A stretch of DNA of 56,968 nt from a virus. Its lineage: Duplodnaviria > Caudoviricetes. This document shows positions 30,807-39,819 of the stretch, piece by piece (the stretch's first letter is position 1; each line of letters opens with the position of its first letter). The stretch lies in IMG/VR virus record IMGVR_UViG_3300046779_001715, positions 1 to 56,968 of that record; one strand, written 5' to 3'. The notes below the pieces were generated by a model. The model was not told where the DNA came from, did not search any database, and was given only the letters and a program-made list of their open reading frames with translations. A program made the position numbers and the translations under genes.

Positions 30807-32996
30807 TCAAATGCCTGTTCCAGCTGGTAATGCCAATGCACGAATGTCTGTTATTATAGGAATAATAGTACTATCAGTAGAAGACATTACAACTTTGATT
30901 GCAAACTGACTGAATTGACTATATGTTTCACCAGTTTCACTTGTGTAAGAAATGAAATTATCAGCCTTACCTAAAGTTCCTGGCGCACATTCAAACTCAA
31001 TTAAATTTGTTTTTGATTGTGAGTATGCGTTTTGATTTCCAACTTGAGTCATCAAGTTCCAATTTGCATCATCAAAATCTTGTGTGTCGTTACGATTTAG
31101 AATTTTGTAATACACATCGACTCTTGTTCCTAAAGGCTTGTATGCAGTATAGAATACTCTCAAATCGCCAGAATCATTTTCTGGAGTCAACACAACTTTC
31201 TTAGTGAAGTATTTTGCAAATGAGTTACCACCTTTAGGTGATGTTTCACCAAATACAACCGCAGTAGCTTGTGTTGTATTCGCACCAGAAATGGTAATTG
31301 TTGGTGATGTAATATAACCAGAACCTGGATGTACAACATAAACAGAAGAAACAACATTTGATGTTCCATTGTTTGCAACAGTTACACCCAATGTTGCTTG
31401 GTCTGTACCAATATCAGGTGCAGAAATTTCTGCTATTGTATTTGCTGCATCATCATATCCTGCACCGACTTCAACCAATGAAATTACGTTATTTTGTATT
31501 TCCATATTGTTAATAATGTAACGAATGTTGTATACAGATACACCATCATCTGAAATGATTGGAGTTACACTGTCATCAGTTGATGATAGTGATGCTGACA
31601 TTTTAAATGAAGTATTACTTTCTTTCAAGAATACCCTTTGTCCTTGGCCATCATCAAAATCTATGTTTTCAGGTGTTGGTGAACCTAATTTTCCAGGAGA
31701 TACCTCATAAGGACCAACAACAATATTACCTTCTGCGAGTGTTGCCGAGTAACTATAGTTAATGCCTGTCGCAGCAGGTGTAAAATCTGTTGTGGTCAAA
31801 TTAACTGCGTCAGACCAAGTAGTATCAGAGAAATTGCCATGCAAATTGCTGACATTATTTGCATCCAACAAATGTTGAATGTCATTTGAACCAATTTTTC
31901 TATATGGTAAACCTTTTTGTAAAGTGAAATCAATTGTTGGATTTTTAGATGTATCGAATACACATCTATCAATAACAAACATCATATTTTTTGTTTGGTC
32001 AGCAGTCCATGTTATTGAGTTTTGTGATTCAAATAATGCACCAACATATGGTGAAGCACCAATTTTTGTTGGGTTTGTTGGATTTGCATCAGATGGTTTC
32101 TCTTTTGCTGTTGACAAAACAGCTGTTGAATTTTGTTGTGCATAGTAAACTTGGTAATCAGGTGAACTGGTTTCCAACATAAATGCATACAATATACCAG
32201 GTTGAATGTATACTGGTGCTTCAAAAACAAACTCAGTATATGTGGAAGAATCCAAATAATGTGGAGTTCTAGATGTAACAACTTGACTTGCACTTAATAC
32301 AACTGTTGAATGATCCAATCTTTGTCCGTTAGGATAACCATTCAACGTATTAACAATAGATAACTTAACTGGTACATCTGTTGCTGGTTTAGAATAGAAA
32401 AATACTTTGATTGATTTAAGGAAAAGACCATTTGGGAAATTGTCTTTTTGTATAATGAAAGACTGTGCAACAGGATCTCCAGGAAGTTGCCTTGTAATCA
32501 CTGTTGTGCTTATTAATTGATTGTTTCTTTGACCAACTTGCGTAAAAGAAGATGCAGCAGAATCAATTGATGGTGAAAATTCTAATTTTTGAGAAGTTGT
32601 TGAAAGTCCAGATGCAGTAAATGTTGCTTCTGCATAAGTCGTTGCAGTTGTTGGTTGAGCTGGAACACTTCTATTATCTACACGAAATACTCTTTGTCCT
32701 GTTTGAAATACACCCGATGGTACATTAAAGATACCAACAAAATTACCACCCTCATCTGTAGATAATTGAGGTAATCCTGTTCCACTTTTAATAGCACTAG
32801 AGACATTCGTGATGTTACCAATTAAACTGTATTCTGAGGTTAAGTCACCAACAGATTCATTGTGACCTAGTGATATATTCACACCTCTGTCGAGTGTGAC
32901 TATACCAGTATCTGCATCGTAAGCTGTTACATTAGCTGTGTAGGTTGAAACACTTTGAATAATTTGTGCTGGTGATATTTTGTATGTATATGCCAT
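30807..32996 (-). CDS. C-terminal part of a DUF4815/VrlC-like virion structural protein
   Basis: G.F..P...FQTG.R.FR, DPVAQSF, G.FL.SI.VFF..K, T.F.F..PVY, GALF.SQN..TWT.DQ, Y.TK.V.L and F.QFAIK.V motifs. Confidence 0.75.
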   Translation of the reverse strand: MAYTYKISPAQIIQSVSTYTANVTAYDADTGIVTLDRGVNISLGHNESVGDLTSEYSLIGNITNVSSAIKSGTGLPQLSTDEGGNFVGIFNVPSGVFQTGQRVFRVDNRSVPAQPTTATTYAEATFTASGLSTTSQKLEFSPSIDSAASSFTQVGQRNNQLISTTVITRQLPGDPVAQSFIIQKDNFPNGLFLKSIKVFFYSKPATDVPVKLSIVNTLNGYPNGQRLDHSTVVLSASQVVTSRTPHYLDSSTYTEFVFEAPVYIQPGILYAFMLETSSPDYQVYYAQQNSTAVLSTAKEKPSDANPTNPTKIGASPYVGALFESQNSITWTADQTKNMMFVIDRCVFDTSKNPTIDFTLQKGLPYRKIGSNDIQHLLDANNVSNLHGNFSDTTWSDAVNLTTTDFTPAATGINYSYSATLAEGNIVVGPYEVSPGKLGSPTPENIDFDDGQGQRVFLKESNTSFKMSASLSSTDDSVTPIISDDGVSVYNIRYIINNMEIQNNVISLVEVGAGYDDAANTIAEISAPDIGTDQATLGVTVANNGTSNVVSSVYVVHPGSGYITSPTITISGANTTQATAVVFGETSPKGGNSFAKYFTKKVVLTPENDSGDLRVFYTAYKPLGTRVDVYYKILNRNDTQDFDDANWNLMTQVGNQNAYSQSKTNLIEFECAPGTLGKADNFISYTSETGETYSQFSQFAIKVVMSSTDSTIIPIITDIRALALPAGTGI

Positions 32997-33017
32997 TTAT
33001 TTTTTCCAAGTAATCTA

Positions 33018-36000
33018 TTATTTATTGTTGATAATACAAGCAATTTTTCCAACCAGTTTAAATATTGTCATCACAGTTTTTCGTGTGTTTGGACTTGTAT
33101 CATCTTTGAATGCTTTGACCAGTAAATTATTCACAAGACTGACATTCAATTTGCCGAATGTGTTGTTTATTAGATAAGCACCATATGATGTATCTTTTCC
33201 GGCAGAAATACATGTGTTCAATACCGTTTCGACAATATCGTTAGTCACAACTTCTTTTTCTAACATCAATCTCAACACCCCACCATCACCAATGATTGTT
33301 GTTGTTCCATATCCATTAACTGTATATGTTCCATCACCATCGGTCCATAGGTTATAAACCATTTTGCCTTCTGACGGAGAAACTTTCACTGGATCAATTT
33401 TTTCCATTTTACCTAACCATGGATAATAATTTTCTACCACCTTAGGATCAACAGCAGACAATTTACCATCAATATACAAAGGATGTTCGATAGTCGCAAA
33501 CGGTTCAAAATCTTTTGATGGTGTGTACAGTGAACCAAAATTTGTATCCAAAGCTTTTTCGACAAAAGTAACTGTATTCAATTCAGTTTTGTTTTTGTTC
33601 CACACTTTATCGCCAATTTTAATATCAACAATTTTCTTTTTACCAGTTATGGTATCAACAATAGTTTCTGATGTAAAGCAATTTGAACCGCCGCCACCTC
33701 CACCACCAGATGCTTTAGGTGCAACATATGTGGCTGTTTCGGTAATATATTCTTGTATGAATTTACTTGTTATACTGATTTTTGCACCAACATAATAATC
33801 ATCAATGTTTGTTGCTCGTGAATCTAATTTCAATCTAGTCACACCAGTAAACCAAGCACCACCTTGAGGCAAAATAATTTCCTGTGCAACTGAATCATAA
33901 TTTAAATTTGGAGGATTTGTTGACTGGAATACAATTTTGCCATTTGGATCTTTAATAACCAAAGCAAATCCAGAAGAGCCTGTATTTGAACCAGTAACAG
34001 TCCAAGACAATGTTCTAGTATTCAAATTAGTAATATTTAACGTTGCAGTAGTTACAGTTTTTGGATCGCTAGATGTAACAATTGTGGTTGTATTAGATTT
34101 AACAGTTGCTGATCCTGTTGAAGAACATTGAATTGTATATGTTCCTGTTTCTAATGGTGCATATACAAATGAAGCTGAATAACTTGCAGTGTGTTTTAAA
34201 TCACCCCAAACACCATATTGATTTAAGAATGTACCCCAATCATGACTGTTTTTTACTCTATAGATTTGTAAATTAGGCTCATTGTTAGCAGTGTAACTTC
34301 CACCAATACCAGTAATTAAACCAGATGTTGATAGAGGAATAACAGTATCATCAATTGTACCATTTGCGGTTGTACCACTATAAACACCGTTTGCATCAAA
34401 TGTAGCATTTCTAATTGAATTTGTCGGTGAATAATTTGGTGCACCAAGTAAGTTAGCAACATACAATCTAACTTTTGTTGTGTTTGGATATTTGTATGTT
34501 GAAACTACACGAGCTGTTGGATAGAATTTATTTGTGTAAAAGAATCCAACAATATCATCTTCATTGAATGTACCAGTAACATCTTTCAACTCAATTGTAT
34601 TTGGTGTTTGAATGTATTGGCTAACATCTTGACCATCAAAGTATGCGTTTACTGGAGTGTTAACCAATAAGCCTTTAGATTTGAAAACAATTTGTTGTGC
34701 TCTGATATATGGAAGAACGGCAATATTGGTCAGATAACCATTCTCACTTCCAATAGTAGAAGAAACTTGTGAATAACTTCCTGAAGTAATATTTCTCAGT
34801 TGGTCAGCATAATTTTTTGTGGTAGTTGTTACTGTTCGTCCACTTGTAGATGAACTTGATGATGAACTAGAAGTTCCTGGAATTGTTGCAAAATCTCCAG
34901 CATTTAAAATGTTTACACCATTTGTTTCTTGGTATACTTCGATAGAAGGATCAACTACAACAATGGCTGGTGCTTGAGTATTATCAACCCAATTGTCCAT
35001 TGGTGGATTAAGTTTAGCAACACCTTCATAAACGGCAACACCAAATGGATTCAAACTAACTGTGCTTGATGCTAGTTGTTGAATAACAACATTTGAACTC
35101 GTATATGGTAGAGTAAATACATTTGTGTTAGTGCCAGAAATGCTTGAAATTGCAAAGTTGTTTGTTTTCTTTAATGTTCCTAAAGAATTCAACACAGTTG
35201 GGTTTTGCAATTGGAAGTTGTCAACCAAAGTCAATGGTGTAAGTTGTTTAGTTCTTACATTAATTTTAGCAGCATAGTCTGCATTTTCTGTATCGGCTGT
35301 TGAGTATGATGAGAAGTCATCAACAAGAATACCGTTCTTGAAACGATTCAAACCATTAACATCCGGTACTTGTAATGATTGTGCATTAGATTCCAACAAA
35401 CTCAATGATGAATAATATTCAAGGTTATTAACTCTGGACTGCAAATCAGTAATGTCTCGTTTGACCCAGTTTTTGTGAAGTACTTTCTCAATAGACAAGT
35501 CTGAGTTGATTTGTCCACTAATTTCACCTGGAATAAATGCAGTGTATGGATTGTGGTCTAATTTTGCCAACACCAATGAACCATCAGGTTCTGTTGGATA
35601 TACTGGCGTTACAGAAGGTGTGCCACTAATAATTTTAAATGAACGATCCTTGGTCAAAACTAATTTATCTTTTCTACCAAGATAGTAACTATAATCACTA
35701 ACATATTCATTCAAGTTTTGTGGTAACATAATACCAGAACTATCAACAGCTGGGTTTCCTGTGTATCTGTATGTTAAAGTTGATACAGCATTTTTTCTAA
35801 CTGGTCTGAAATCAACACAGTCGGATAATTTATATTTGGTTCCTCGTCTACTTGTGAAAGTAGGTATTTCTTGATAAACTTCTGGAGAAGAAGAATTTGG
35901 TGACAAATAAGATTTGATACTGAAGTAACCATCACCACCAGAGTGTGAGTAGAAATCATATATGACCAATAAGTTACCTTTTGGAAGATTTGCACCAGAA

Positions 36001-38408
36001 ACTAATTTAACCGATGCATGGTCATAATAATTATCTCTTTGACCATTATCCAATGTGAATAGATTCGTCACATCATAAGATGAATCAGACAACATTGCAG
36101 CTGTTGGATTCACTGTAGGATCTTTTGTGTCAATAATTTTAACAATTTGTTTAACATCAGACACATATAAACTGGTTGTTTTAGTTATGCCAGCTCTTTT
36201 GATATATGTTTGACCGTTGGTTAAATCGACATAGAAATTTGTATTTACAAGTGTGCCGTTGATGTGAACACCACCTGTGTTACCTTCAACTAGGTTTTTA
36301 ATTTTCAAAATACTGCTTGTGTTATCAGCATTTGAAACATTCAAATCACAAATAACGTCTACATTATAACCTGAATAAGTACTTGATGCAAATGTTGCTG
36401 TCTTTTTATCTGATGAAAGAGAAATTGTATTTCCACTGGAAATAAAATCTAAAATTTGGCCCGATGTTCTATCAATAACAATAAAGTTTTGTTTGATAAC
36501 ATCAGATGATAATGCACCAGAAGTACCTAAGAATGTATATGGTGTTCCTGATGATATTGAAATTACTAATTCACCACCGGTGATGGTTTGGTCACGATAT
36601 ACTTTTGTGGAAACATAGTTACTATTGGATACATTAGCTATGTATGAGTACCCAATAGGAAATACCAACTCAGGTGCGTTTGGATTTTCTAGAATCGTAT
36701 CACCAGTAACAAGTCCATTTCTTTTACCTGACAAATCAATGTTTGCAGTTGAAACAATAACATTACTTGAATTTCTATAAACAATAGATTCTATTGTTGA
36801 GGTAGAAAATGATATTGTAAAAGTGCTTGAATTTGTTGGATTAATTGTAAACGCTGAATCAACAGTGGCAACTCTAGTTGTACCGTTATATGCAGTAATT
36901 TTTCTAGTATCTATTGTACCAGATGTATTGACTGTGATAGATGCACCATAATATGCATCAGTTACGGTAGAGAATTGTGCAGTAACTGGCAATGAAATGG
37001 TTGTTGCAGTACCAGTCACAGCAGTACCAGTTAATGTTGTTGTGTTAACATCGGAGATGTATGCTCTGTAAACATATGTTGCGGTATTACTATCAGAGGT
37101 GCTACTTACATATTGTAAGTTTCTAATATTAGCAGAACCAACCAATGTCGAATTATATGTTGTTGTATTTGCCGTAGAGATACCTGAGTTACCAACACAA
37201 TGCAAATCAATTTTTGGCATTGTAGTAACATCAAAAGTACCTTTTACACTATTGACGGTCAAATAACTACCATAATCAATAAAGATGGCATTGTTTAAAA
37301 TATTATCTGTTGTTCTGGCTCTGTCATTTGTAAGAACAAGATTTGATTGATTTTCAATTCTATAACCGTGTACATATGCAAGGCCTTTTCCAACACCCAA
37401 ATCATATGTTGAAGAATTGATTGTGTTTGTTGATGGTGTAAGTTTGAATTCATTAACAATATAGTCACCATTGGATTCATAATCACGTTTTGCAAAGTAA
37501 TCGTCAATTACGGAGTATACTGTACCATCAACTTGTTTAACAATCTTGCCATTATCAATACGAACCAACTCAATGAATTGGTCATCATTACCAACTGTTA
37601 ATGGTAATGCAGTCAATATTAAATTGATTTGATATCTGTCTGCACCTGGTGCTTGGTAGTTTGATGCACCGACCGCAGGATCTAATAATGATGAATCGTC
37701 AACATAGTCTACAATTGTTTCATAAATTTGTAAACCAATACGGAATGAAGGCGTATTACTGTACTTGCTTAGAATGGTTGTCTGTGGTTGAACAGAAACA
37801 AAGTTACCAATAGAATACTTGCTGAATGTTCCATCTTCATTTTGTGTAGGAGATGTATAATAACCGTTTCTAACGTAGAAAACACCTTCTGAAATGGATG
37901 ATACTGATGATAAACCGGTGCATGTTGTTTCACCATCAACACCAATTGTTGTTGCAGTGTAATTAGAATCATCAGTTGTATAGATAGTCATGTTGTCTGT
38001 GAACTGAACACCAGACAGATAGTTAACAATCAAAGTTGGTGGTTCAGTAGAAGAAACATCTGTGCCAATTGATTCAGCAGTTGCAACAACCTTTGCAAGA
38101 ATAGTACCACTAGCATCTTGAATCAATTTATTCTTAAAATCTGCCGCAACAATATCAATATTGTTTTGTTGTTTGTTTAACTTAATATAACTACAATTTA
38201 AGTTTGTTGTAACTTTACCACCAGTTACTGGTGTATTTTGTGAGAAAATATTGTCAGCAAATTTTGAAATTTGACTTTGTAGTATTGTTTGTGACTGTGT
38301 TAATTCACGAGCCTGAACAGCAGAACCTGGTTTGAATAGAATCCTGTGGAAGTTTTTTGAAGGATCAAAATCATCGTGATATGGTTTAACATTAAAATTG
38401 AGAGACAT
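33018..38408 (-). CDS. N-terminal part of a DUF4815/VrlC-like virion structural protein with a C-terminal Hint domain
   Basis: N..PY.DDFD..KNFHRILFKPG.AVQARELTQ.Q.ILQ.Q, APGADR, R.Y.E.GDY.V, NLEYY.SLSLLE and RFKNG.LVDDF motifs; then G7-SN/CFT...TIEHP...VYNL. Confidence 0.8.
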   Translation of the reverse strand: MSLNFNVKPYHDDFDPSKNFHRILFKPGSAVQARELTQSQTILQSQISKFADNIFSQNTPVTGGKVTTNLNCSYIKLNKQQNNIDIVAADFKNKLIQDASGTILAKVVATAESIGTDVSSTEPPTLIVNYLSGVQFTDNMTIYTTDDSNYTATTIGVDGETTCTGLSSVSSISEGVFYVRNGYYTSPTQNEDGTFSKYSIGNFVSVQPQTTILSKYSNTPSFRIGLQIYETIVDYVDDSSLLDPAVGASNYQAPGADRYQINLILTALPLTVGNDDQFIELVRIDNGKIVKQVDGTVYSVIDDYFAKRDYESNGDYIVNEFKLTPSTNTINSSTYDLGVGKGLAYVHGYRIENQSNLVLTNDRARTTDNILNNAIFIDYGSYLTVNSVKGTFDVTTMPKIDLHCVGNSGISTANTTTYNSTLVGSANIRNLQYVSSTSDSNTATYVYRAYISDVNTTTLTGTAVTGTATTISLPVTAQFSTVTDAYYGASITVNTSGTIDTRKITAYNGTTRVATVDSAFTINPTNSSTFTISFSTSTIESIVYRNSSNVIVSTANIDLSGKRNGLVTGDTILENPNAPELVFPIGYSYIANVSNSNYVSTKVYRDQTITGGELVISISSGTPYTFLGTSGALSSDVIKQNFIVIDRTSGQILDFISSGNTISLSSDKKTATFASSTYSGYNVDVICDLNVSNADNTSSILKIKNLVEGNTGGVHINGTLVNTNFYVDLTNGQTYIKRAGITKTTSLYVSDVKQIVKIIDTKDPTVNPTAAMLSDSSYDVTNLFTLDNGQRDNYYDHASVKLVSGANLPKGNLLVIYDFYSHSGGDGYFSIKSYLSPNSSSPEVYQEIPTFTSRRGTKYKLSDCVDFRPVRKNAVSTLTYRYTGNPAVDSSGIMLPQNLNEYVSDYSYYLGRKDKLVLTKDRSFKIISGTPSVTPVYPTEPDGSLVLAKLDHNPYTAFIPGEISGQINSDLSIEKVLHKNWVKRDITDLQSRVNNLEYYSSLSLLESNAQSLQVPDVNGLNRFKNGILVDDFSSYSTADTENADYAAKINVRTKQLTPLTLVDNFQLQNPTVLNSLGTLKKTNNFAISSISGTNTNVFTLPYTSSNVVIQQLASSTVSLNPFGVAVYEGVAKLNPPMDNWVDNTQAPAIVVVDPSIEVYQETNGVNILNAGDFATIPGTSSSSSSSSTSGRTVTTTTKNYADQLRNITSGSYSQVSSTIGSENGYLTNIAVLPYIRAQQIVFKSKGLLVNTPVNAYFDGQDVSQYIQTPNTIELKDVTGTFNEDDIVGFFYTNKFYPTARVVSTYKYPNTTKVRLYVANLLGAPNYSPTNSIRNATFDANGVYSGTTANGTIDDTVIPLSTSGLITGIGGSYTANNEPNLQIYRVKNSHDWGTFLNQYGVWGDLKHTASYSASFVYAPLETGTYTIQCSSTGSATVKSNTTTIVTSSDPKTVTTATLNITNLNTRTLSWTVTGSNTGSSGFALVIKDPNGKIVFQSTNPPNLNYDSVAQEIILPQGGAWFTGVTRLKLDSRATNIDDYYVGAKISITSKFIQEYITETATYVAPKASGGGGGGGSNCFTSETIVDTITGKKKIVDIKIGDKVWNKNKTELNTVTFVEKALDTNFGSLYTPSKDFEPFATIEHPLYIDGKLSAVDPKVVENYYPWLGKMEKIDPVKVSPSEGKMVYNLWTDGDGTYTVNGYGTTTIIGDGGVLRLMLEKEVVTNDIVETVLNTCISAGKDTSYGAYLINNTFGKLNVSLVNNLLVKAFKDDTSPNTRKTVMTIFKLVGKIACIINNK
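33019..33026 (-). promoter_or_regulatory. Putative late promoter (AATAAATA) for the second DUF4815 half
   Basis: TAAATA core overlapping the stop codon of the 1796-aa ORF. Confidence 0.45.
33297..33680 (-). other. Hint (Hedgehog/intein) autoprocessing domain, about 128 aa, without C-terminal His-Asn
   Basis: Block A CFTSETIV.T..G.K.I.DIKIGDKV (Cys codon 33678-33680), block B ATIEHPLY (TxxH), block F VYNL...DGTY.VNG; terminal motif is YGTTT rather than xxVHN. Confidence 0.85.
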
Positions 38409-38418
38409 TTTTTTCCTT

Positions 38419-39819
38419 TTAGTATCCTAATACAAATCTAATTTGTTCTATTCCGTCAGCACTTCTTACAACGCCTGTCCTATTTTCAATAAACGAAATA
38501 TATCCTGAGAGTATTGTAAAATTCGGTTCACTAGATGTTAGTAATGTTCTTGTTGTTTTTGATACGTTACTAAACAGAGGCGCATTTGTGATTGGACTTC
38601 CTACTATATTTATCAACTTAACCACGTTGCTTGCAGCATCAAAACTCAAAACTCTTGCTGTAAATGAAGATGTTTCTGGTGTTAATCCACCTTGATAGAC
38701 GAACTCATCACTAACATAAGTTCCAAAACCAGGTGCAACAATCACATCTGTTGTTGTCTTATATATATCGCCATTTGCCGGGTAAGGTGTTGGTGACAAA
38801 TCATTCTTGGCTTCCAAGTACATACTCTGTGTTGTTGGGTTAATTAGTAGACCGAGTTGGTGAAAATCTATATCAGTTGGTATAGAACCATTCTCATCAC
38901 CCTCAAATTGACAAGTATACATGACATGAGCACAACCCAATTCGGAAATTGGATCAAACCCGTGGCCACCAATAGGAGAAGAATTGGCCTGCAACACGGC
39001 ACCAGAACCATTAGTTGAACTAATTTCTGCTGTGGTATATGTATAGTTGGTACCTGGATTCGTTATCAAAATATCCTGTATCACTCCATCAGATATGTCT
39101 GCCACGGCTCTTGCACCTGTTCCGTCACCAGTTATGACAACTGTAATAACGGAGTTACCTGGATCGTATCCTGACCCACCATCAATGACATTAATACTGT
39201 CGATACTACCTGCACCTGCACTGGTAACTAATGGGTTTGGTGTATTAGAACCAACAGGAACTGGCAACCATTCTGTGTCCATGAATTTGACTTTTTGGCC
39301 AGCATCAATCGTATAGATATATTTCCACTTATAACCATCTGAACCCTTGAACACGTTATTTGTGTCATAAGAACCAGGTTCAAAATATGGTTCATCAGTT
39401 GAAGGTTGTGTGTTGTTATTCCACAAACATTTGAACACTTGGTCATAAGAGTTCTTGACATAAAAATGATATCTTAAATAACCATTTACATCTTTCTCCA
39501 AAATGTCAATGTCATCACGGTAAATATCGTATGTTGTGCCTGTGGTCCAATCAATGCGTTGAATGACTGGAGAAATATCGTTCGACTTAATTTTCTTGGC
39601 AACAAATATATTTTTAAAGATTTGTTTGATTGCCTTTTGGTCTGTAGTTGGTACAGGTGGATTTTCTTCATCCTCCCAAGGTTCTGCTTTAGACAAAAAA
39701 CAATATGTTGTTGTCACTGGTATTGTAGTTGAAGGAGGAATCACAGAAACAGGTCCGTAATAGACCTGTTCTATTTGTGATACCTTGGCACCGTATGTGA
39801 TAATATTTTTATTTGACAT
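38419..39819 (-). CDS. gp8: Baseplate wedge subunit
   Basis: V..RIDW..GT.YD.Y, FYV.N....V.KCL.N, ST.EP, DGYKWKY.YTI, P.GGHG.D...EL and Y..NR....R..D..E.I..V motifs. Confidence 0.9.
   Translation of the reverse strand: MSNKNIITYGAKVSQIEQVYYGPVSVIPPSTTIPVTTTYCFLSKAEPWEDEENPPVPTTDQKAIKQIFKNIFVAKKIKSNDISPVIQRIDWTTGTTYDIYRDDIDILEKDVNGYLRYHFYVKNSYDQVFKCLWNNNTQPSTDEPYFEPGSYDTNNVFKGSDGYKWKYIYTIDAGQKVKFMDTEWLPVPVGSNTPNPLVTSAGAGSIDSINVIDGGSGYDPGNSVITVVITGDGTGARAVADISDGVIQDILITNPGTNYTYTTAEISSTNGSGAVLQANSSPIGGHGFDPISELGCAHVMYTCQFEGDENGSIPTDIDFHQLGLLINPTTQSMYLEAKNDLSPTPYPANGDIYKTTTDVIVAPGFGTYVSDEFVYQGGLTPETSSFTARVLSFDAASNVVKLINIVGSPITNAPLFSNVSKTTRTLLTSSEPNFTILSGYISFIENRTGVVRSADGIEQIRFVLGY

Follow-up and report, generated by a model that had tools for sequence, protein, structure and literature searches.

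The window analysed here is the entire IMG/VR record IMGVR_UViG_3300046779_001715 of a virus of the Caudoviricetes (56,968 bases, completeness listed as 34). It carries a VrlC/DUF4815 baseplate gene that is divided between two open reading frames (ORFs) on the minus strand, the strand of all features described below. The ORF list and translation give a chain 1 of 1796 aa (P0001, 33018..38408 including the stop) and a chain 2 of 729 aa (P0002, 30807..32996 including the stop). Alignment places the break between them in the hairpin loop of a single small beta-module, beyond which chain 1 continues into a C-terminal cassette whose first part is, from structure prediction, a genuine Hint domain. 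We consider it probable that VrlC is re-formed from the two chains by complementation and that the cassette of chain 1 is a self-removing, interchangeable cap.

Two chains of one VrlC gene

Chain 1 matched the Pfam family DUF4815 (PF16075) with an E-value of 5.9e-54 and 183.8 bits (cutoff 30), and no Pfam match was obtained for chain 2. A preliminary description of this DNA, made from the sequence alone, had assigned C-terminal DUF4815-type motifs to chain 2. This chain is indeed homologous to the C-terminal third of unsplit VrlC, but the Pfam match itself is confined to chain 1. On the 2056-position profile of PHROG 358, residues 3-1318 of chain 1 aligned with positions 5-1275 (6.9e-226) and residues 24-428 of chain 2 with positions 1278-1649 (3.5e-92), the second match directly continuing the coverage of the first. 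Chain 1 was also aligned with residues 6-1391 of the VrlC of P-HM2. Unsplit VrlC is encoded by a single ORF in HTVC008M (6006 nt, 2001 aa), in P-HM2 (2222 aa) and in the IMG/VR relatives L003-L005 (2170-2173 aa), with ~50% identity to chain 2. L002, a relative at 96% identity, is split in the same way as the window, and the codon differences between the two amount to 59 synonymous and 26 nonsynonymous changes in chain 2 and to 122 and 45, respectively, in chain 1. Proteins resembling chain 2 formed 285 clusters at E<=1e-10; among the 120 listed, nearly all were 718-752 aa long with 98-100% coverage, and four were longer (773-1086 aa). We conclude that the two ORFs are parts of one VrlC/DUF4815 baseplate gene.

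Eighty loci were retrieved through alignment of chain 2. The gene is split at the site of the window in 45 of them and continuous across this site in 33, the remaining two being unassigned. One locus counted among the 33, L156, is continuous at the break site, but its ORF starts just 374 residues ahead of the match, so that a split at another place in its VrlC is possible.

Position of the break

An intact module inside chain 1, a repeat of its first half just ahead of the Hint linker and the matching second half about 20 aa into chain 2 had been pointed out in the preliminary description, and all three were recovered. The intact copy, a small beta-module with a short hairpin turn (36849..36959) whose profile is paralogous to that of the break-site module, occupies residues 484-520 (DAYYGASITV...RKITAYNGTTRVATVDSAF; boundaries DAYYGASITV...TVDSAF). 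The first part of the split module, consisting of strands beta0 and beta1, lies at 33762..33863 (chain 1 residues ~1516-1549, GGAWFTGVTRLKLD...DDYYVGAKISITSK) and aligns with GLTSITLDAKASATNSFYVGSTIVLTS of the unsplit relative P0004; the recurring half-module DDYYVGAKISITSK within it covers residues 1536-1549 (nt 33803-33762). The second part, at 32811..32945 (chain 2 residues 18-62, TYTANVTAYDADTGIVTLDRGVNISLG...SEYSLIGNI), contains the recurring half TANVTAYDADTGIVTLD at residues 20-36 and aligns with YTATITAYDGSTKVATLGTAVGISTG of P0004. In the unsplit proteins P0004 and P0005 both parts stand in one chain, since pairwise alignment revealed FYVGSTI(V/T)(L/I)T(S/T) followed, 47 and 43 residues on, by YTATITAY(D/N)G(S/T)TKVATL. 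Chain 1 matched these two proteins up to ...DDYYVGAKISITSKFIQEYITETATY and chain 2 matched them from ...STYTANVTAYDADTGIVTLD, each pairwise alignment of a chain with an unsplit protein being limited to one side of the loop. Alignment by MAFFT --addfragments and semi-global alignment were dropped because the ~150-aa insert of chain 1 was forced onto unrelated columns.

Within this protein alone, the internal module matched the N-terminus of chain 2 weakly by BLASTP (E-value 0.004) and the chain 1 half not at all. When profiles were built from 23 unsplit relatives, with the module columns cut out of the full alignment, hhalign aligned the internal and the break-site modules with a probability of 95.8% and an E-value of 6.6e-9, and the gap fell precisely between the two halves. 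Where the internal copy has its tight turn (SGTSAGDxR), the break-site module of these 23 relatives has a loop of ~5 to ~60 residues. Because the profile alignment places this loop between the two halves, the break is located, as judged from the aligned sequences, in a hairpin loop of hypervariable length inside one beta-module of ~60 aa. Both the alignment to unsplit homologues and the hhalign comparison bear out the earlier proposal that the gene was opened in a loop within a single domain.

On the chain 1 side, a remnant of the native loop (FIQEYITETATYVAPKAS) is followed by a Gly7-Ser-Asn linker that ends at the predicted cleavage site (33681..33761, delimited on the alignment of relatives). 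The linker comes from the loop itself, since unsplit outlying relatives carry ..YVPPYPQFSGDGDG.. in their native loop. L103, which is unsplit inside the split clade, reads ...ATYVPPPQLPSGGAGG-LTLSNGYRASLYTYSATITAY and has kept the linker, with neither cassette nor stop.

An extra beta-rich insert of ~150 residues (SHDWGTFLNQYGVWGD...) was observed directly before the split module, at ~33870-34280 of the window (chain 1 residues ~1385-1515). It is present in the split clade and absent from the ~50%-identical unsplit L003 and L004, and its residues 1402-1439 gave a weak match to Pfam Y_Y_Y.

Co-folding of the two halves

Residues 1377-1576 of chain 1 (cap removed) and residues 1-172 of chain 2 were co-folded, each with its own alignment. 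The interface score ipSAE reached 0.71, against 0.00 for the best of three controls. Of 80 solved complexes, 58 attain the mark applied to this score, as do 2 of 110 mismatched pairs; these counts are only approximate for the present case because own alignments were used. The runs shared at least 61% of contacts. Contacts of low expected error involved residues 1513-1528, 1532-1562 and 1564 of chain 1 and residues 1-35, 37-49, 52 and 54-62 of chain 2. In the model, strands of both chains are interleaved in the module: V1540-S1548 of chain 1 lies against residues 18-26 and 54-57 of chain 2, I1544 being in contact with residues 20-23, and V1523/T1524 lies against residues 34-40. The profile of chain 2 had no match in the PDB, and the sole PDB match of chain 1 was the DUF4815 chain, over residues 902-1144; as far as sequence can tell, the result of the co-fold therefore does not rest on a similar complex. 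The module predicted from both chains supports re-formation by strand complementation, in line with the fragment complementation that had been suggested before.

A Hint domain and a helical tail cap chain 1

Chain 1 runs through ...ATYVAPKAS-GGGGGGG-SN into a 220-aa module starting CFTSETIV, whose first residue, Cys1, is residue 1577 (nt 33680-33678). This cassette consists of a Hint domain that starts with Cys-Phe (33291..33680, residues 1577-1706), delimited by AlphaFold2, Foldseek, profiles and conservation, and of a tail (33021..33290, residues 1707-1796) that AlphaFold2 predicts as a helical bundle and that is always the end of the protein. With an alignment of 36 rows, AlphaFold2 predicted the cassette with a mean local confidence (pLDDT) of 95.5 and a template modelling score (pTM) of 0.89, placing a beta fold at residues 1-130 and helices at 134-217. 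Foldseek returned 17 PDB matches at E<=0.001, and all among those listed were Hint domains, with Tetrahymena BUBL BIL2 (6y75, E 6e-6) at the top, followed by Vint, the gp41-1 intein, the C. thermocellum BIL (2lwy) and the hedgehog 17-kDa fragment (1at0). The same Hint set was found when the sequence profile of the cassette was searched against PDB sequences by hmmsearch (1.4e-5); phmmer of the cassette alone against the same sequences gave chance matches only. Among the 36 members of the cassette family, Pfam Hint (PF01079) matched 21, and PT-HINT reached E<=0.001 in just 6. Taken as predicted, the first part of the cap is a genuine Hint fold. The helical tail had no match to a Pfam or NCBIfam family.

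The residues expected of a Hint domain are present in the window as Cys1577 and Thr1639-Ile-Glu-His1642. Across the family, counting only the rows that have a residue at the position, conservation was 116/116 for Cys1, 115/116 for Phe2, 128/140 for Thr63 (the other 12 being Ser), 140/140 for His66 and 140/146 for Asp116. Where inteins have their final His-Asn, this family shows Thr or His and then Ser; just 7-8 of 145 rows carry Asn. As a C-terminal Asn and a downstream nucleophile are lacking, the Hint would be able to cleave at its own N-terminus only. From the fold and the conserved residues, the cap most likely removes itself by cleavage, in the manner of Hedgehog and BIL domains, and on the same grounds a Hint-processed end of chain 1, part of the earlier proposal, is plausible.

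When 1.84 billion representatives (clusters at 50% identity) were scanned in full with HMMER, the relatives of the cassette numbered 200 at E<=0.001, of which 137 reached <=1e-10 and 89 reached <=1e-30. In 101 of 150 representatives the cassette was covered to query position 170 or beyond and ended within 25 aa of the C-terminus; the others include fragments. We also collected 80 IMG/VR loci with the cassette, four of which (L037, L041, L057 and L084) are cut by the contig end, and in all of the 76 uncut loci the cassette ends the ORF. The stop lay 138-241 aa after Cys1 in these 76 loci, and 196-241 aa after it when the two weakest matches, L085 and L086, are set aside. Ahead of Cys1, members of the family have poly-Gly, a hydrophobic stretch or a further Hint. 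A tblastn search of the cassette against cultured and GenBank phages gave no match. The Hint-plus-helical-tail thus represents a large family (200 representatives) of which no description was found in the literature, supplementary files not being covered.

The window carries one Hint copy only. In P0129 (2397 aa) and locus L012:3-7166, four tandem mini-intein-like Hints with a CF start and a VHNK end were observed ahead of the terminal Hint-plus-tail, at the same break site, and similar Hint stacks occur in other host proteins (P0130, P0132 and P0168). In large fibre-like proteins (P0135, P0139, P0140, P0147, P0160, P0172, P0175 and others), Cys1 directly follows a long hydrophobic, Ala/Val-rich, membrane-helix-like stretch, with no poly-Gly.

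End-modules found at the break site

The split loci are conserved up to ATYVPPP..PSGGGGG and diverge thereafter by cassette type. The Hint cassette was found in 10 of the 45, an IIC-type cassette in 13, a CCV-type cassette in 9, Peptidase_S74 in 2, and a short tail of only 24-90 further residues in the remaining 11. The IIC type is a helical module of ~170-190 aa that starts (K)IIC(T/K)KL or has the related form RVICTHM (for example L094:6909-7508, L098, L106 and L113), and the CCV type is a module of ~125-135 aa that starts C(C)V(V/I)AT (for example L093:6860-7459, L105, L108 and L141). Both end in hydrophobic, membrane-helix-like stretches, and neither belongs to a Pfam or NCBIfam family. 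The Peptidase_S74 domain occupies this site in L145 (25.2 bits, cutoff 22) and L151; its profile had no match in the tail of chain 1 of the window.

The preliminary description had tied the split to the Hint, and this link holds in one direction only: the Hint never occurs in a continuous gene (0/33), but 35 of the 45 split genes do without it, 11 having a short tail and 24 an unrelated cassette. Split and Hint are therefore separable, and the Hint is one of several interchangeable end-modules.

A tree of the chain 2 region was built with FastTree from 81 rows, none excluded; it is unrooted, and the groups below are those seen under midpoint rooting. Two groups made up of unsplit rows only (10 and 14 rows) fell outside a clade of 53 rows (support 94) that contained 43 of the 45 split loci and the window row, with cassette types mixed, and 9 unsplit rows in addition. 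A separate split group, beside the unsplit group of 10 rows, was formed by the short-tail L153 and both S74 loci. Cassette states require 19 changes on this tree, against a minimum of 6, and the split/unsplit state requires 6, figures that are provisional since they come from a quick unrooted tree. The single-chain genes of HTVC008M and P-HM2 and the outlying unsplit groups agree with the earlier idea of an ancestral single gene that was opened in the loop; as the tree is unrooted, this direction of change is one that we infer.

Probable exchange of the cassette

In the comparison with the 96%-identical L002, a tract of 763 nt (32946..33709) was identical in both contigs. It comprises the end of the linker, the whole cassette, the junction and the first 17 codons of chain 2. 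Over positions 30900-38399 of the window the two differ 266 times, and the next-longest difference-free tracts measure 250, 231 and 223 nt. The Hint plus tail had no difference in 660 nt, compared with 92 in the 2187 nt of chain 2 and 175 in the first 1560 codons of chain 1, and the flanks of the identical tract differ from L002 by ~2-4%. At the local rate of ~121 differences per 5,100 nt, the chance of such a gap is ~1e-6 by our own arithmetic. This comparison of sequences suggests that the cassette and the junction were recently recombined or converted as one piece.

The same cassette also ends chain 1 of VrlC at two other sites, ~1611-1627|1619 and ~1154-1167|1510 in the numbering of P0004, and 43 of the 80 Hint loci are non-VrlC proteins. 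At one of these other breaks, chain 2 begins at a conserved DP(I/V)AQ(S/T)F (~P0004 1619); at the second, chain 1 ends at ~P0004 1154-1167 and chain 2 resumes at ~1510. The loci concerned are L016, L018-L020, L024, L025, L033, L034, L046, L048, L050 and L055, and also L058 and L075.

The junction and the expression of chain 2

Chain 1 ends ...IINNK, after which the gene strand reads TAA TAG ATT ACT TGG AAA AAA TAA ATG, with a gap of 21 nt between the chains. The junction (32997..33026) contains AATAAATA at 33019-33026, TAA at 33018-33020, TAG at 33015-33017, GGAAAAAA at 33000-33007 and TAA at 32997-32999. As described earlier, the two ORFs of the window share a frame and are separated by TAA TAG and a further TAA. 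Among the 20 split relatives listed, however, the frame offset between the chains was 0 in nine, 1 in four and 2 in seven. Since the offset varies, readthrough is excluded as a general mechanism and the shared frame of the window is incidental. Readthrough or recoding was rejected on account of this variation and of the three stops.

Signals for a separate start of chain 2 recur among the split relatives, in agreement with the candidate promoter and leader proposed before. A TAAATG start context was found in 40 of the 45 split loci and GGA(A/G) upstream of it in 39, and 24 of the 45 have ATAAATA 26-40 nt upstream of the chain 2 start, a word that we take to be the late-promoter motif of T4-like marine phages. 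In the window, the gene strand carries 15 copies of NATAAATA and the other strand none; one copy overlaps the stop of chain 1. Copies of this candidate late-promoter motif within 30-39 kb stand at 38614, 33026 and 30677. The N-termini of chain 2 come in two flavours, each of which occurs both with and without the Hint.

Gene order

The upstream neighbours of the split gene belong to the T4-type wedge families gp6, gp7-like and gp8 and the downstream neighbours to tail-fibre families. VrlC thus stands after gp8 in a T4-like baseplate block, and P-HM2 and HTVC008M show the identical order. The nearest relatives of the gp6 of the window, at ~40% identity, are those of the Pelagibacter phages HTVC008M and Mosig and of the Methylophilales phage Melnitz. 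Megablast of the 9-kb region gave no match.

A model for the two-chain protein and its alternatives

In the model that we favour, the VrlC gene would have been cut in the hairpin loop, such that beta0 and beta1 close chain 1 and the remaining strands open chain 2. Chain 2 would be made from its own start, served by a Shine-Dalgarno-like GGAAAAAA, TAAATG and a late-promoter-like AATAAATA. Chain 1 would be translated with a removable C-terminal cap made of the Gly7 linker and the 220-aa Hint/helical bundle cassette, in which Cys1, Thr-x-x-His and Asp would serve an N-S acyl shift at the Asn-Cys bond; cleavage would leave a mature chain 1 ending ...GGGGGGGSN and free the cap. As the baseplate assembles, strand complementation between the two chains would restore the module without a covalent bond, and the end-modules at the loop may be swapped between phages by recombination. 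The cap itself is most likely a self-removing passenger or an assembly aid, and not a link between the halves.

Several observations weigh against this model. AlphaFold2 failed on the cassette when given the single sequence (pLDDT 34.8), and the Pfam PT-HINT profile (PF07591) scored the window sequence at 24.6 bits, below its curated cutoff of 27.7. The residue before Cys1 is Asn in the window but Gly or Asp in most relatives. In the co-fold, which is itself a model, the partner had a pLDDT of 47-49 and its overall fold is uncertain. The Cys-led cassettes (22/45) also start with Cys after poly-Gly, so that a shared Cys chemistry is possible and the term passenger may be too weak. The FastTree tree is unrooted and has 9 unsplit rows within the split clade, which makes both the unsplit ancestor and the numbers of gains and losses provisional. 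Finally, the identical tract is known from one contig pair only.

The cap might instead be an assembly chaperone, which we regard as a possible though rather unlikely role. The bundle would gather copies of chain 1, or hold the unpaired half-module until docking, and the Hint would then remove the cap. In favour of this role, L145 and L151 carry the Peptidase_S74 chaperone domain at the exact position, and the cassette caps many large fibre-like proteins. The DUF4815 protein is present in 15 PDB entries (81 chains), at least one of which (9tic) is cited in the phage 812 baseplate paper (PMC13433997). Trimeric "tripod" proteins are described in that paper, and we infer that the DUF4815 PDB chain is the phage 812 tripod protein. 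However, the short-tail relatives (11/45) assemble without such aid, and a chaperone differs from the self-removing cap that we favour in its role only, the chemistry being the same.

An improbable alternative is that the cap is a device for protein ligation or adduct transfer. Its thioester would be resolved by chain 2, through its N-terminus or a side chain, by a neighbouring baseplate protein, or by a small molecule such as a lipid or glycan chosen by the tail bundle. Models for such a reaction exist, as cholesterol is the acceptor in Hedgehog and lysines are the acceptors in BIL-ubiquitin-like proteins. The best structural matches of the cassette, Tetrahymena BUBL BIL2 and hedgehog HhC, belong to these systems and pass their thioester to a nucleophile, and the conserved bundle of ~85 aa stands after the Hint, in the place of the adduct-recognition region of Hog proteins. 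In the co-fold the N-terminal leader of chain 2 is placed alongside the final ordered residues of chain 1, so that the 14-residue linker could reach this leader. Nevertheless, ligation is not required for function, because the Hint is missing from 35 of the 45 loci with this split, of which 11 are short-tailed. No Cys, Ser, Thr or Lys specific to Hint loci was found in the N-termini of chain 2, the same cassette ends many unrelated proteins, and sequence and fold searches with the tail gave no match pointing to an adduct. The speculation in the preliminary description that the thioester ligates chain 1 to the N-terminus of chain 2 thus found no support, there being no Hint-specific nucleophile or motif at that N-terminus and the split working without the Hint.

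It is very improbable that a true or split intein splices the parts of VrlC, either after readthrough or in trans with a C-terminal intein fragment (IntC) on chain 2. The window ORFs are in one frame, the Hint lies exactly at the break, and P0129 and L012 have four tandem mini-intein-like Hints ending in VHNK at the same site. Against this stand the three stops in the 21-nt gap and the frame offset that varies among the 20 split relatives listed. The Hint fold is also complete on its own and is followed by the helical bundle, a terminal Asn being found in 7-8 of 145 rows, and residues 1-22 of chain 2 align with the host loop and not with blocks F/G, with no His-Asn followed by Cys, Ser or Thr. 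A canonical intein was rejected as chain 1 stops after the cassette, leaving no C-extein in the same chain and no (His-)Asn plus Cys/Ser/Thr; a split intein was rejected as no IntC is found at the start of chain 2 and the Hint is complete within chain 1.

A decaying gene or an assembly artefact, in which the stops would reflect a pseudogene or a sequencing error, has nothing in its favour beyond stops within a gene that is elsewhere continuous, and was rejected as next to impossible: the 80 IMG/VR loci are independent and 45 show the same split, proteins of the size of chain 2 make up at least 120 clusters drawn from several sources, the start signals of chain 2 are conserved, and synonymous changes exceed nonsynonymous ones in both chains.

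Significance and comparison with known systems

A structural phage protein split inside a domain would exemplify fragment complementation arising naturally in a baseplate. That the split protein still works follows from the split form being conserved and widespread. One loop of VrlC takes at least four kinds of C-terminal module and can be regarded as a hot spot for cassette swapping, which bears on the diversification of phage tail proteins; no description of the cap or of this hot spot was found in the literature, supplementary files not being covered. Ligation or transfer, if true, would bring a reaction of the Hedgehog or BUBL kind into virion assembly, in some 200 protein clusters. The cap could also serve protein engineering as a compact N-cleaving Hint tool.

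Among known systems, the Hog domains of Hedgehog (1at0, 6tyy) share with the cap a Hint that starts Cys-Phe, has TxxH and Asp, stands at the C-terminus and is followed by an extra region of ~85 aa, and like them the cap is expected to cleave at its own N-terminus only. Unlike Hog domains, the cap has a tail without detectable similarity to sterol recognition, its host is a phage baseplate protein, and the preceding residue is Asn, not Gly. The Hog-type architecture fits the cap, for which adduct transfer would be a putative activity. BIL domains are non-splicing Hints in variable surface-type proteins, and those of 2lwy and of Tetrahymena BUBL (BIL2; 6y75, 6tmm) are the best structural and profile matches of the cap (Foldseek 6e-6, hmmsearch 1.4e-5). 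The cap differs from them in scoring below the PT-HINT cutoff, in lacking a C-terminal His-Asn, in carrying a helical bundle and in forming a large family of its own.

Peptidase_S74 chaperones of phage tailspikes and fibres act through a serine-lysine dyad. Like the cap, they are self-removing C-terminal modules of tail proteins, and they occupy the same site in L145 and L151, but the fold and chemistry of the cap are unrelated to theirs. Fractured genes with split inteins and a homing endonuclease gene were reported by Dassa et al. 2009 (PMC2677866). As reported, they share with the window a phage-type gene in two pieces with a Hint-family sequence at the break. In contrast to the arrangement given there, the window has no IntC on chain 2, no endonuclease gene in its 21-nt gap, and a whole, non-splicing Hint.

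The closest counterparts of the window protein are the single-chain VrlC proteins. According to PMC7029224, VrlC belongs to the core baseplate proteins of pelagimyophages and cyanomyophages, and PMC4621102 reports its immunolocalisation to the A511 baseplate. HTVC008M gp057, PHM2_088 of P-HM2 and the DUF4815 chain of PDB 9euf belong to the same family as the two chains of the window, with shared synteny after gp6, gp7-like and gp8; unlike the window, they consist of one chain and carry no cassette.

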